Counted from the first letter of the stretch, positions 35,801-41,800 are shown. The stretch is DNA of 64,000 bases from Diretmus argenteus (GCA_048569125.1 CM109057.1:35006381-35070380), one strand, 5' to 3'. Notes: generated from the letters alone by a model not told the origin. Numbers and translations are program-made.

Positions 35801-38800
35801 AGTGAGAACAAGATTGGCTATCTAGCAACTTGGATTCTCCATTTGGAGTAGATGAATGGGGCTGGTCTGCTTTTGAAGGTAACACTCTGAAGTTTTGTTC
35901 CCCAACTGCAGGAATCACTACGTGCTACTGGCATTGAGTAATACAAGTTGGAACACACTGAAAAATAAGTTTTTTTGATCCTCGCCTGTTTTTTTAGCAA
36001 ACAGATGCCTGCAGATTACTATTATTCAATGGGACCTATTAGCTGAATAACACAATGGGACCACAGCATGAGGTCTTACCTAGTCCAAGTTCAAAGCAGA
36101 TAGCAATACTATTGAAAATGAATGATTTACACATGTTTTTCTATGTGTATGTATAGGCGCTCTCCAAAAACGGCCATTTGGAGACTCCAAAAGGACACTT
36201 TGTACCCATTGTCACATACCTTGAATAAAAAAGGCTACAAGTCTTGATTTTTATTTTATTTTTTTTATTGAAAGGGAACACTCAGGGAACAGTTGAAAAC
36301 ATTTTTTTTTTTGGAAAGGGAACACTCAGGGGACAGGGTTTTATGTACAATTATTTACAGGTTTATAGGTTGTTGGCAACATGCCACTCATTATAACAGT
36401 CTCTCTCTATCTGAAAGCACAAAGGCATGTCACAAGAGCTGCACTTCAATGGTGTCTTCCGTTTGCATTGCCTGCACTTCAGTCGACCCTGAGAGCGGTC
36501 CACACTCAGGTAGACTGGCCTGTGGTGTGCTCCAGGTGCAGCAGGCTCTGGTCTGGGTCTGGGTGTGGCTGTGGAGGAAGAGCCCACATCTGCTAGCTCC
36601 TGTAAGAGGGTCTCCCTGAAAGTCTTTTGTGTCATGGGCACCTCTCCTTTTGTTTTGGCAATGTCTTTGTGGATGATGAAGGCATTCACAATGGCAATGT
36701 CAATGAAATGATAAAAGAATGACTTATACCATTTCTTGGTCTTGTGAAGGACCTTGTAATACCCAATCAGTGCATCGGACAAGTCAACTCCACCCATGCG
36801 CTGGTTGTATTCCTTCACTGCTGGAGGAACTGGGATGTCCTTCAACACCCAGCCATCTGCACCCTTCACCCTGCGTTGCACTGTGGCCTCCCCGTGGGCC
36901 ATGTGGATCGTAGAACACAGGTTGACGTCCCTTGTGTCTCGCCACTGAACGAAGAGGAGGGAGTCCTTCCTTATCCACCGTATGCTGCCGCGAGTAGATT
37001 TTGACGTCATACAGTTTTCTTTTGTTTGGGGGAATCCAACTATGTGTGTGCGGAGGGTTCCGCACGCCCAGATCCTCTTCTGAAGGAGGTCACGGAAAAG
37101 TAGAGGACTTGTATAAAAATTATCCACAAAGAGCTTGTAGCCGGTGCCCAGCAACCTCGTGTCCACTAGGTCCATCACCGACTCATAACTAAGCCCCTTT
37201 CCAGTGTCACCCTGCATTTTTCCCTCATACACAAAAAAGTCCCATGTATAGCCATATTGAGAGTCTGCCAAAACAAATAGTTTATACCCCCAGCGAACAG
37301 GCTTATTCCTCATGTATTGTTTGAGCCCAATACGAGCTTTTGAGGCAACCATTCTCTCGTCAATGGCAATGTCCTGGCCAGGGTGAAAGTTCCTTTTACA
37401 GGCTTCCTTCATCATGCCATAGATTGGCTGGATCTTCCCAAGACGATCGAAGGCTCCTGTGCCTCTCCTCTGTTCGTTGGCAGCAGCCTCTGCTGGGCTA
37501 CTGAGGTGAAGGGACCGGAGGATCCTCAGGAACTTTTGTCCAGTAATGACGTTTCTGGGGAACAGCAAGCTGTACAGATGACTTTTTCTCCAGTAATCTG
37601 TTAGTGAGAAGCATCTCACTATCCCCATATAAATTACAATGGACATGAAAGAATACATGTCCTCCAGTGTAATAGGAATCCACGGGTTGGAGGGTTTTGT
37701 GTGGTGAGTTGCGCCAAACTCATTTGTGTTTTGAACCAGCGTCAATAAAATGGAGTTTGTAAAAAAGAGCTGGAAAAGCTGAAGGGCGGTGTATCTGTCT
37801 GTAGAGACAAGCCCCTGGGGTCCTGGGGTCCTTCTGGGTCTAAAGATGGGCTGCGGAGGCATAATGTCTGGCTCAGTATTGTCTTTCCATCTCTCTCCAG
37901 ATGGGCTCGTTGACACCTCAGCCTGACTCCTGCCTCTTCCTCTCCCTCTGCTCCTCCCCCGTCCTGCTCGTCTTGTACTGGCAGAACCTCTCTGGGGTGT
38001 GGGGGAATGATGCTCTTCACCTGAGGAGCTGTCCTCCTGCTCCACATGAAGTCGCTGGCTGGGTGGCTCCCAATCTGAATCGGATGTCCTATTATGTGAA
38101 AATAAATAATGATAATTTACATTTTGCCATTTACAAAACTAACAAAAATGTTATTTTACAGATTACTGCCTCATGTCAGCAGGTCACACAGTGGGGGGAG
38201 GGGGCACACACCAACATCAACACCCCTCTCCCCCTTCTGCAGTAAAGACACACATCAACACCACACACACACACACACACACACACACACACACACACAC
38301 ACACACACACACACACACACACACACACACACACACACACACACACACACACACACACACACACACACACACACACACACACACACACACCTAAATGTGA
38401 ACCAAGCTCAAAAACCTCAAAAAGTATTACATACAACACATCCAATACATACATACAACACATACAATACATACATACAACTACTTCAACATACTGCCCA
38501 AATATACCCAAAAACCCAGACACAAAAGTCACCAGGCAGACGCATGGAAAAACTAAAGCTAAAGACAAGCATATATATTTAGAAATATACAGCAATGTAG
38601 TAATATAGTAATTATTATTATTATTATGCAATTATGATAGAATATAAAAAAATACTTACATAGTAACATCTCCGAGCCGCTCGTCCGTGGTGTGTTCCTC
38701 TGGCCCAGAGTAATCAGAGCTGAACTCACTTATTTCCATATCAGATGAATCTGAAGACTCCTCCTGTGGTTCAATATGTTTGGTTTTCACTTTCCTTTTA

Positions 38801-41800
38801 GGCATCTTATCAAAATTCACTATACAGTGGTCCCTCGCTGTAACGCGGTTCGCCTATCGCGGCCTCGCTGTTTCGCGGATTTTTTTTGGTCTATTTTTTT
38901 TTACAGCGTTCAGTATTAACGCATTGTGTTCGGCGTCCTTGGCACACGTTCTTCTGGCCCAGAAGAAAAAACAGTGCCAACAACTACCCATAACTATGTT
39001 CTGCACTCGGAAAAAAACACCTGCGCCTTCAGAGGAAAAAGACGTTACAGCAGAGCGGCGCCAGGACAAAGAGGCACCGTCAGAGGAACTGTGAAATACG
39101 CGTGAGTTAGTACAGTACTGGTAATAATTACTTATGTGTCAAACCTCGTAGATTGATCATTAAAATTTAATTTGTTAAAAATGTTTGGGCTTGAAAACAG
39201 GTTATCTGTTCATCTGTTTATTTGTTTATCTGTTATCTTCATTTACTAATACTATATTGTATTTATTTTTTTAATCTGTGAAAGTTTGAACTTTGTGAGT
39301 GTTTAAATAAGAGAACTGTGAGAAAATGTTAATGCCTGTGAGAAAAGTGTATAAAAGTATGTAGTTAGGGGTTTTACGGCCTTAAAACATGTAAAATAAT
39401 TGTAAAAAATAAAGCTGTTTACTTCGCGGATTTCGTTTATCGCGGGTTATTTCCGGAACGTATCCCCCACGATAAACGAGGGACCACTGTATACAGTAAT
39501 ACGCGCAATTACGCACACCTTACGCACAAAGAGCGCACAGCTTCGTCACTTGTTCTTAAGTTAGAAATCGCCCGGCACTAGTGTTCATTCACAAAATCAC
39601 CTCCCTCCCTTGCTTGGAAGGGGCGTTCCTTCAGAGGAAGGGAGGTAGGCATGGCCTGCCTCTTCTTTTCAACTTTTGACGATCATTGGTTGGCGCATAT
39701 GCCGTGTCATTCCATTGGTTGGGAACAGTGTTTGGACGTTTCTATTGGCTGATCAAGCTGTCAGTCAATATGATACGTCCTCGGGGGGCCATCTTAGAAT
39801 CGAGTATTTGGAAACTGTGGACTGGATTTCATGCAGTGCCTGTGAGATTGTATGCGTTTTGATGGCCAAGTTGAAATCCAGTCCAGCGATCTTTGGACGT
39901 TGTGAAGGAAAATCCGTAGTTTGGATTGTCCAAGGGAAACGAAGCAATATGTCTCGGTCTGCTTGGTTGTCAGGGATGTAAACAAACCGCTGTTTTTGGA
40001 ATATGATCTTTTCATGGACCTTTATGAGCCGTCAACTGTAAGTTTCATCAAATTTCTCGTTTGTTGGTAGTCTGACATAGGCAGTGATTGTGCCTGCTGT
40101 GGTTATTGCATCTTGAAATGCTTAGCGGGGCTGAAAGCACAAGAACTGTAGCTTTCATTTGAATGCTTCACTGTGATCCTACGTGCTTATTTGACGAGTG
40201 TACATTCATAAATATCGCGCAAGTCCAGTACCGGGCCCGGGGCCGCCCCCATGGAATTCTAACAGGTTAAGAACCAGAAATGATATCTTAACACACCGAC
40301 GTATCGTAAAACCGTTTCCCAGCCAAACACCATCACAAGTAACTCAACAAAGGGAACTACTGTAACTGGAGCAATGCTCTACAAAGCCCCGATGTCAAAC
40401 CACAAGAACAACCAGTGTGTGAATCATCATCATGTAGTGTGTAGATGTCGTACCTTGTCCACTTTGGCTTTGCATTCAGGATCCACCGGAGCTTTGCCCT
40501 TCATCACCACCGTCTTCACGACCTCTGCACAACATCCAAGGGACAAAACATTAATGAGGTCAACATGCTGTTAATCAGTATATTCTGATTTGACACTGCA
40601 GAAAACAATACACATTAAAGACTATGTTGATGTTACTGTGTTGTAACAGTGTAAGGTTCTCTCTCCTCTCCGGTGTGTTTGCAAGTCGTGTATAAAAAGA
40701 TGTCAATGAAATGCACATACCTTTACTATCTATTTCTTCTTTGGGTGTCTGTTTACTTTTCATCTGACTCTTGCCTTGACCTCTCTTCCTCTTGGCTGCT
40801 GGCTGCTTCTCCTCCTCCTCCTCCTCCTCCTCCTCCTCCTCCTCCTCCTCCTCCTCCTCCTCTTTAACTTGAACCAAACTCCCAGCTGGACCAGTTAAGT
40901 CTCTGCTCCCATTCAAACTTTCTGGATAGGAGAAGAGCATGAAAAACACAATTAAAAACAAATATATTTTGTCAGTGACAATAAGGGGATATAAAAACAT
41001 CTCCCCTCTATAATATAATTAAAACTATAATAATAATAATAATAATAATAATAATAATAATAATAATAATAATAATAATAATTGAAATACATAAAGCACT
41101 TTTCTAAACAAAAGTTAAAGTGCTGTAGAAAAAAAATAAAGCAAACAGAAACAACTAAGAATGGCATGACAAAGTCATATATCAAACACAAAATAAACAA
41201 GATGACAAAAGCAACATGGAAAACAGAAACATGAGAACAAAATCACAGAGTATGTAATGTTTTGCATTAGTTCACTTTCCTTATTCACAATATCTCTCTC
41301 TCTCTCTCTCTTTCATCACCTCCTCACTCGCTTTCTCTCTCCCTGATTCTTACCCCACGCTCTCTTCTACCTCTTTCTTCCCATCCACCTCTCCCTCCCT
41401 CTGTCTCTACTCTCTCACACACACACACACACACACACACACACACACACACACACACACACACACACACACACACACACACACACACACACACACACAC
41501 CTGACTTGACTGCCTGAGAGCGTATTTTCCTCTTGTACTTGGTGACAGGGTTCAACTGGACCATCTTCTTCAGGTCGACTTCATAGACCGTCCCCGAGCC
41601 CAGAGCCAGGGTGAGCGAGGTCTCCCCGGAGGAGACTGCTGAGTCCAGCAGGGTGCAGGCTGTAGGAGGGTAAGGCTCCCACTCCCCCTCATCTCCCTGC
41701 CACTGCCACACTGATGAGAGAGATGGAGGATGGGGGGTTATATCACATGCACATTCTTGTAATTGCTGATTTAGTTCACTTCACTTTAGTTCAGAAAAAT

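Follow-up and report, generated by a model that had tools for sequence, protein, structure and literature searches.

The 64-kb stretch of Diretmus argenteus DNA analysed here (the window; all coordinates are positions in the whole window) harbors, inside an intron of the PARP2 gene, a piggyBac-like element that spans 35410-40266 (4,857 bp), is bordered by TTAA on each flank and encodes a transposase from the minus strand. The original prediction for this DNA had described an intact, intron-containing piggyBac transposase gene lying in the sense orientation inside a PARP2 intron, all of which was confirmed. The parts of the element are as follows.

35406-35409, no strand: TTAA target-site duplication on the 3' side of the element (minus-strand orientation), read from the sequence
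35410-35423, minus strand: 3' terminal inverted repeat (TIR), CCTGTTACAAATCT reading inward on the plus strand
35410-36362, minus strand: 3' non-coding part, 953 nt, holding both AATAAA signals
38088-36363, minus strand: transposase exon 2, from the third base of codon 49 to the TAA stop, with the DDD core and the Cys/His-rich C-terminal domain
38089-38659, minus strand: intron 1, 571 nt, phase 2, GT-AG, GTAAGTAT...CACATAATAG
38805-38660, minus strand: transposase exon 1, 146 nt, with the ATG at 38805 and an acidic, Ser-rich N-terminus
38821-39493, no strand: nested non-autonomous element, 673 bp, with perfect 17-nt inverted ends (TATACAGTGGTCCCTCG) and TA at both junctions
39494-40266, minus strand: 5' non-coding part, homologous to the 5' region of the Epinephelus fuscoguttatus relative (locus L003)
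40253-40266, minus strand: 5' TIR, CCTGTTAGAATTCC reading inward on the minus strand
40267-40270, no strand: TTAA target-site duplication on the 5' side of the element, read from the sequence and the empty-site alignment

Read along the minus strand, the element opens with its 5' inverted end and continues through a native leader of 788 nt to exon 1, intron 1, exon 2 and the 3' region. The two exons join to 1872 nt, corresponding to 623 codons plus TAA with zero internal stops, and the predicted 623-aa piggyBac frame without stop or frameshift was thereby reproduced from the exon coordinates 38805-38660 and 38088-36363. The termini of intron 1 read GTAAGT...AATAG, and its length equals that originally given; it contains an (AC)n microsatellite at 38248-38390, for which Tandem Repeats Finder reports 72 copies with a 95% match, while the uninterrupted part of the array comprises about 62 copies, in agreement with the (CA)62 run described before. 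The polyadenylation signals expected on the minus strand 3' of the stop were observed as AATAAA at 36269 and 36260, approximately 95-105 nt past the transposase stop. The N-terminus of the protein is homologous to that of annotated relatives, which start with MAK, MSK or MGK and continue with acidic runs rich in Ser, Asp and Glu. A 560-codon open frame combined with a full-length match to the transposase domain rules out a chance feature.

The identification by profile search, which had been proposed as a check, gave a match of the transposase to Pfam PF13843 (DDE_Tnp_1_7) with E=3.4e-79 and 267 bits (cut-off 22.4), covering profile positions 2-349 of 349. Among solved transposases, phmmer matches were obtained to piggyBat (9c0f, 9e-39) and to T. 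ni piggyBac (6x67, 9e-27). In the 6x67 alignment, D292, D371 and D484, located in the contexts IDER, VDNFYTS and GGVD, align to D268, D346 and D447 of the T. ni enzyme, and D487 aligns to D450; the three catalytic aspartates are hence retained as predicted, and the misalignment that might have undone the claim was not found. The catalytic Asp positions are kept in 81-88 of 88 family members. A C-terminal Cys-rich pattern, C-x2-C-x7-C-x2-C-x4-C-x6-C-x4-H, likewise occurs at residues 587-618; all seven Cys/His ligands are present, and every one of these positions is shared by 86 or more of the 88 family members. At columns with at least 95% conservation the Diretmus copy deviates at 3 of 129, against a family median of 2 and an interquartile range of 0-5. 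Judged from these residues, the transposase protein looks fully competent.

The original prediction had found no TTAA-flanked terminal inverted repeats. These ends are present approximately 0.95 kb and 1.46 kb beyond the interval 36363-38805 that it had delimited, which explains why they were missed, and an empty site in another fish confirms them. The inverted ends CCTGTTACAAATCT and CCTGTTAGAATTCC are identical at 11 of 14 positions and of the CCTG type, with a derived CCTGTTA start common to both, and both TTAA duplications are perfect; including the TTAA, the strings read TTAACCTGTTACAAATCT from 35406 and the reverse complement of TTAACCTGTTAGAATTCC finishing at 40270. A CCY-type start of the element ends fits published piggyBac-like elements (PMC5381638). 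On the 3' side, non-coding homology with the relatives of Xyrauchen texanus (locus L001) and Epinephelus fuscoguttatus (L003), at 75-77%, stops exactly at ...AGG|TTAA, and on the 5' side the window, from 40266 inward, aligns with the Epinephelus locus from about position 2131 (GCCTTGCCACTCC...GGCCC).

In Centroberyx affinis (locus L005), PARP2 intron 4, the ortholog of the intron interrupted in Diretmus, measures 928 bp and shows no piggyBac similarity. When 35410-40266 and one TTAA are subtracted from the Diretmus intron, the remaining 707 bp align through the junction with the Centroberyx intron. The Diretmus junction reads ...CATTTCTGGTTC TTAA ATTGATTGCA... (shorter left flank TTTCTGGTTC), and that of Centroberyx reads ...CATTTCTGG-TC TCAA ATTGATAGCA... 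(left flank ending TTTCTGG-TC), where the flanks are contiguous around a single site, TCAA. Together with the 3' and the 5' homology limits, this alignment is one of three independent lines of evidence that agree on the boundaries; it is the decisive one and fixes the ends of the element to the nucleotide; as the Centroberyx site is empty, the insertion postdates the split of the Diretmus and Centroberyx lineages.

The locus thus displays the domain, the DDD residues, the TTAA duplication, the CC-type ends and, by pattern, the Cys-rich tail of a piggyBac-like transposon, and it is best read, with good confidence, as a full-length and possibly still autonomous element of a known teleost family, representing a lineage-specific insertion in parp2 intron 4. 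Under this reading, a cut-and-paste insertion at a TTAA in parp2 coding intron 4 would have followed the split from Centroberyx; a transcript would be driven from the element's own 5' region, intron 1 would be removed from it by splicing, and the transposase would bind the CCTG-type ends, excise the element and reinsert it at TTAA. The intact ORF would then reflect a copy that is evolutionarily young or derived from a recently active lineage, not the status of a host gene. Few vertebrate piggyBac elements are found in nature with an undamaged transposase and both of their ends, and each of them is a candidate tool for genome engineering; such an element also marks recent transposon activity, in this case in the lineage of a deep-sea fish.

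Several observations weigh against a complete and active element. The inverted ends are imperfect (3/14 mismatches), and a bare pair of TTAA and inverted ends is not significant, as 0.64 enclosing pairs are expected by chance when all TTAA pairs of the window are scanned, so the boundaries rest instead on the homology limits and the empty site. The zinc-ribbon model PF13842 is unmatched by the transposase, even with the isolated tail at E up to 10. The nested 673-bp element interrupts the 5' leader 15 nt before the ATG and carries six sense-strand ATGs, and approximately 396 nt at 35494-35889 are extra, being absent from the Xyrauchen and Epinephelus copies, where a gap falls between aligned blocks. 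Both additions lie in non-coding parts beside an untouched 1.87-kb ORF, a pattern that selection on the ORF could fit too. No further copy or fragment of the element occurs within the 64-kb window, and a collection of 5.8 billion proteins, the Diretmus argenteus PARP2 among them, contains none with an identity above about 74%, so that recent activity is only putative. Given the 673-bp and ~0.4-kb additions, present expression and mobility of the element are uncertain.

These features also bear on the possibility that the copy is dead, with an interrupted leader and mismatched ends that block expression or mobility and an ORF that is still open for lack of time. The nested element with its six upstream ATGs, the match of the inverted ends at only 11 of 14 positions and the absence of a second copy from the window would all suit such an explanation. 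By a rough estimate, a 1.87-kb frame stays open with a probability of at least 5% only up to about 1% neutral divergence, so either the insertion is young or the frame has been selected, and an open ORF is compatible with a young yet inert copy. However, left and right ends are often unlike in published piggyBac-family elements (PMC2198921), a gene may still be expressed with insertions in its 5' leader, and the protein shows no degradation. A dead copy overlaps with the reading of a full-length young element, differing from it only in present activity, and is a possible outcome, though not the expected one.

Within the 3' part, conservation across species is seen in a block at 35946-36247 and in the last ~70 nt, with the 75-77% identity noted for the Xyrauchen and Epinephelus loci and a further match in locus L002. 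An Rfam scan of 34700-40700 returned zero RNA families at E up to 0.1, hence the conserved 3' block corresponds to no known RNA. The nested 673-bp element can be described as Tc1/mariner in style, judged from its TA junctions and CAGTG-type ends only. The segment at 35494-35889 includes an internal direct repeat of 55 nt (35612-35664 and 35681-35735), finishes with AATAAA in an A-rich stretch and could represent either a small retroposon or a local expansion. No second copy of either the 673-bp element or the 396-bp segment was detected in the window or in the eight fish loci that were fetched.

More than 1,000 teleost proteins match the transposase, most of them named 'piggyBac transposable element-derived protein 4(-like)', and the closest attain at most 66% identity when compared along their full length and 74% within the core. 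The genomic location was established for seven relatives, namely those of Xyrauchen, Epinephelus, Clinocottus, Ictalurus, Nothobranchius, Salmo and Aldrovandia. Their neighbours are unrelated: thymosin and mito_carr; histones; V-set; lipocalin and GPCR; an abLIM-type gene, with the relative inside it; Tma16; and one without a neighbour. None of the seven lies near PARP2. The closest 'PGBD4-like' elements (P0001 of Xyrauchen texanus, P0005 of Epinephelus fuscoguttatus and P0007 of Clinocottus analis; full-length identity 62-66%, core identity 71-74%) share with the Diretmus copy the acidic N-terminal exon, the phase-2 intron 1, the DDD residues, the Cys/His tail and a homologous 3' non-coding region with its terminal motif; the Diretmus copy differs in its two nested additions and in being without the intron 2 that six relatives carry. 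These relatives are probably the multi-copy Actinopterygii groups G1/G2 of Bouallegue et al. 2017 (PMC5381638).

Exons were mapped in six annotated relatives (Xyrauchen, Epinephelus, Clinocottus, Ictalurus, Nothobranchius and Salmo), and intron 1 was found at an identical position and phase in 6/6, with a donor like GTAAGTAT; its acceptor tract (...TTTATTTTCACATAATAG) is conserved in the closer relatives, and the Aldrovandia locus has the conserved 3' end of the intron; with it, the seven fully mapped relatives all carry intron 1 at this place and in this phase. A phase-2 intron after the acidic N-terminal exon is, on this comparison of gene structures, ancestral in the transposase genes of the teleost family. 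The intron-containing organisation, which had been regarded as unusual for this copy, is therefore a trait of the fish family and not of the Diretmus copy. A second phase-2 intron, located directly before MGGVD, is present in six loci (99-324 nt in five and ~7 kb in Aldrovandia) and is missing in the Diretmus and Salmo copies, the Diretmus sequence corresponding to the spliced junction. Intron 2 may have been lost or may have been absent ancestrally: a dN neighbour-joining tree sets the Diretmus copy outside Nothobranchius and the core, whereas dS places it nearer the core; if intron 2 was lost, its 3' position would fit the classical pattern mediated by a reverse transcript.

Intact TTAA-flanked ends were found around none of six relatives, and among the copies examined only that of Diretmus retains the two TTAA duplications together with two intact ends. 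Several relatives annotated as 'PGBD4-like' genes have open frames and damaged transposon ends. The Xyrauchen locus L001 (8780-8960) is 5'-truncated, is without the terminal ~90 nt and shows TTAC instead of TTAA at the 3' end, and the Epinephelus locus L003 (2100-2440, 13290-13355) has no TTAA at either end and extends ~7.7 kb from its 5' end to the ATG. Further ends of the TTAACCCTTT type occur near relatives, at 7932 and 8279 in L001 and at 1556 and 7788 in the Nothobranchius locus L007; the former are possibly unrelated piggyBac miniature inverted-repeat transposable elements (MITEs) in Xyrauchen, and 1556-7788 may delimit a TTAA-bounded element of 6.2 kb that encloses the Nothobranchius gene.

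The dN/dS values between the Diretmus copy and its relatives range from 0.21 to 0.28, with dS of 0.8-1.06, and together with the 3/129 deviations they indicate that purifying selection has acted on the lineage leading to the Diretmus copy through almost its entire history, which would be anticipated for a host gene and equally for an active lineage of transposons. The original prediction had leaned towards domestication or a non-canonical element, and this lean was not borne out: TTAA and the ends are present, the Centroberyx intron is empty and the relatives are unsyntenic. A lineage-specific domesticated gene, in which a PGBD-like ORF has been co-opted and is kept by purifying selection while the non-coding parts decay, would nevertheless agree with several of the data, namely the intact and conservative ORF with its low dN/dS, the 673-bp and ~0.4-kb insertions taken up by the non-coding parts, the ends that differ at 3/14, the lack of a visible near-identical paralogue in the protein collection, and the several gene-annotated relatives that retain open frames with eroded or missing ends. 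Against it, both TTAA duplications are perfect, the orthologous intron is empty in Centroberyx, synteny is lacking among the relatives, and no orthologue above ~74% identity was found among hundreds of annotated teleosts. Moreover, low dN/dS between copies is also expected in an active transposon lineage, and the chance that two insertions both fall in the non-coding half is about 0.25, so their placement is not evidence of selection. Across Centroberyx and the seven relatives, synteny and orthology are absent, the ends and duplications are retained and the signature of NeoPGBD, a described domesticated gene, is lacking, which leaves co-option an unlikely explanation.

NeoPGBD is described as single-copy, orthologous across teleost orders, 649-682 aa long, with 86% similarity and no splice signals (PMC5381638), whereas the Diretmus element encodes 623 aa, has an intron, has no orthologue and shows at most 74% identity. 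Membership in NeoPGBD, compared here through its published description only, was rejected on length, intron, identity and synteny. For annotation it matters that the exact empty site demonstrates how fish 'PGBD4-like' gene models can be ordinary transposons.

Canonical piggyBac elements are described with single-ORF, intronless transposase genes. T. ni piggyBac (6x67/6x68) and Myotis piggyBat (9c0f) belong to the same fold family as the Diretmus transposase and share with the element the TTAA target, short inverted repeats starting with CC and, by its spacing, a similar C-terminal Cys-rich pattern; the Diretmus gene departs from them in its 571-nt intron, in a His as the last metal ligand, in leaving PF13842 unmatched and in its low identity. 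The salmon elements pTSsa1/pTSsa2 use a TTAA site, have inverted repeats that begin with CCTG and differ between left and right repeats (de Boer et al. 2007, PMC2198921); they are ~1.4 kb long and non-coding, and their likeness to the Diretmus element, taken from the description, extends to the four terminal bases only.

Widespread horizontal transfer of transposons has been documented in ray-finned fishes. Among the Xyrauchen (L001), Epinephelus (L003), Clinocottus (L004) and Ictalurus (L006) copies, whose hosts belong to different orders, dS is only 0.41-0.78, and the protein tree of the family is incongruent with the fish phylogeny; the low dS, taken from the transposon copies, and the tree incongruence suggest horizontal transfer of this fish piggyBac family. 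The conserved intron and the apparently low dS between orders offer small, testable leads on regulation and spread. By analogy with the Drosophila P element, intron 1 might act as a control device, for instance through splicing restricted to certain tissues or the germline, of a horizontally spreading piggyBac, of which the Diretmus copy would be an autonomous member that lost its 3' intron via RNA; this extension of the transposon reading is quite unlikely.

PARP2 exons flank the element on either side, all on the minus strand, and so share the orientation of the transposase, as had been predicted. The exons were numbered from the Diretmus argenteus PARP2 protein P0241 (631 aa), which matches the window exons essentially residue for residue; with a 633-aa reconstructed PARP2 as the query, P0241 was the best match by a wide margin and the next was Centroberyx affinis, 85% identical, which assigns the window to D. 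argenteus or to a nearly identical fish. The exons bearing on the insertion are the following.

~42463-42392, minus strand: PARP2 coding exon 1, from P0241
41714-41499, minus strand: PARP2 coding exon 2, with the WWE domain, from P0241
~40877-40722, minus strand: PARP2 coding exon 3, from P0241
40525-40454, minus strand: PARP2 coding exon 4, with a phase-0 donor, immediately upstream of the insertion
34885-34835, minus strand: PARP2 coding exon 5, immediately downstream of the insertion
23995-23840, minus strand: PARP2 last exon, from P0241

By this numbering the host intron, first given as PARP2 intron 3, is coding intron 4, between the exons 40525-40454 and 34885-34835. The shared orientation recalls human PGBD3, an intact piggyBac-derived ORF that also lies sense in a host-gene intron, preceded by an acceptor and followed by a polyA signal, and is spliced in frame to CSB exon 5 (PMC5381638, PMC2268245). 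A comparable gene trap in Diretmus, in which upstream PARP2 exons would be spliced to the element's acceptor and end at its polyA signal, yielding a fusion or a truncated PARP2, would be aided by the orientation, by the strong acceptor TTTATTTTCACATAATAG|G at 38089/38088 and by the two AATAAA signals after the stop. The frames mismatch, however: the donor of PARP2 exon 4 is in phase 0 and the acceptor of transposase exon 2 in phase 2, so that the join adds 23 codons and then meets a stop. A PARP2-transposase fusion through the element's splice acceptor is accordingly out of frame and excluded, and only a truncated product could arise. A truncating transcript is possible as read from the splice signals, but the annotated Diretmus PARP2 is full length (P0241, 631 aa) and skips the element, and a gene trap of the CSB-PGBD3 kind appears very improbable. 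The element does not alter what is known of PARP2.

Within PARP2 itself, the WWE domain PF02825 is recorded in 120/120 fish PARP2 matches, and a (GT)n run lies directly 3' of the donor of the WWE exon. The acidic exon that follows (~40900-40722) carries a long (GAG)n run, and the acceptor used in P0241 falls inside it, giving 7 Glu as compared with ~20 in the longest open reading.

Upstream of PARP2, six-frame translation displays very long open frames on the minus strand at ~55364-52000 that run into reverse-transcriptase-like sequence, and the region looks like a largely intact long interspersed nuclear element (LINE) with endonuclease and reverse transcriptase. Further upstream of PARP2, at 61929-60201 on the minus strand, exons of an SDR39U1-like epimerase were observed (GGGSGFVGRELTRLL..., ...GSGRQPFPWIHVSD...). 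At 31130 and 31404 and, inverted, at 44593, TTAA precedes GACTTTTTAAGRCC, with 15/16 and 14/16 matches; these sites may be termini of a further repeated, TTAA-associated element that flanks this part of PARP2.

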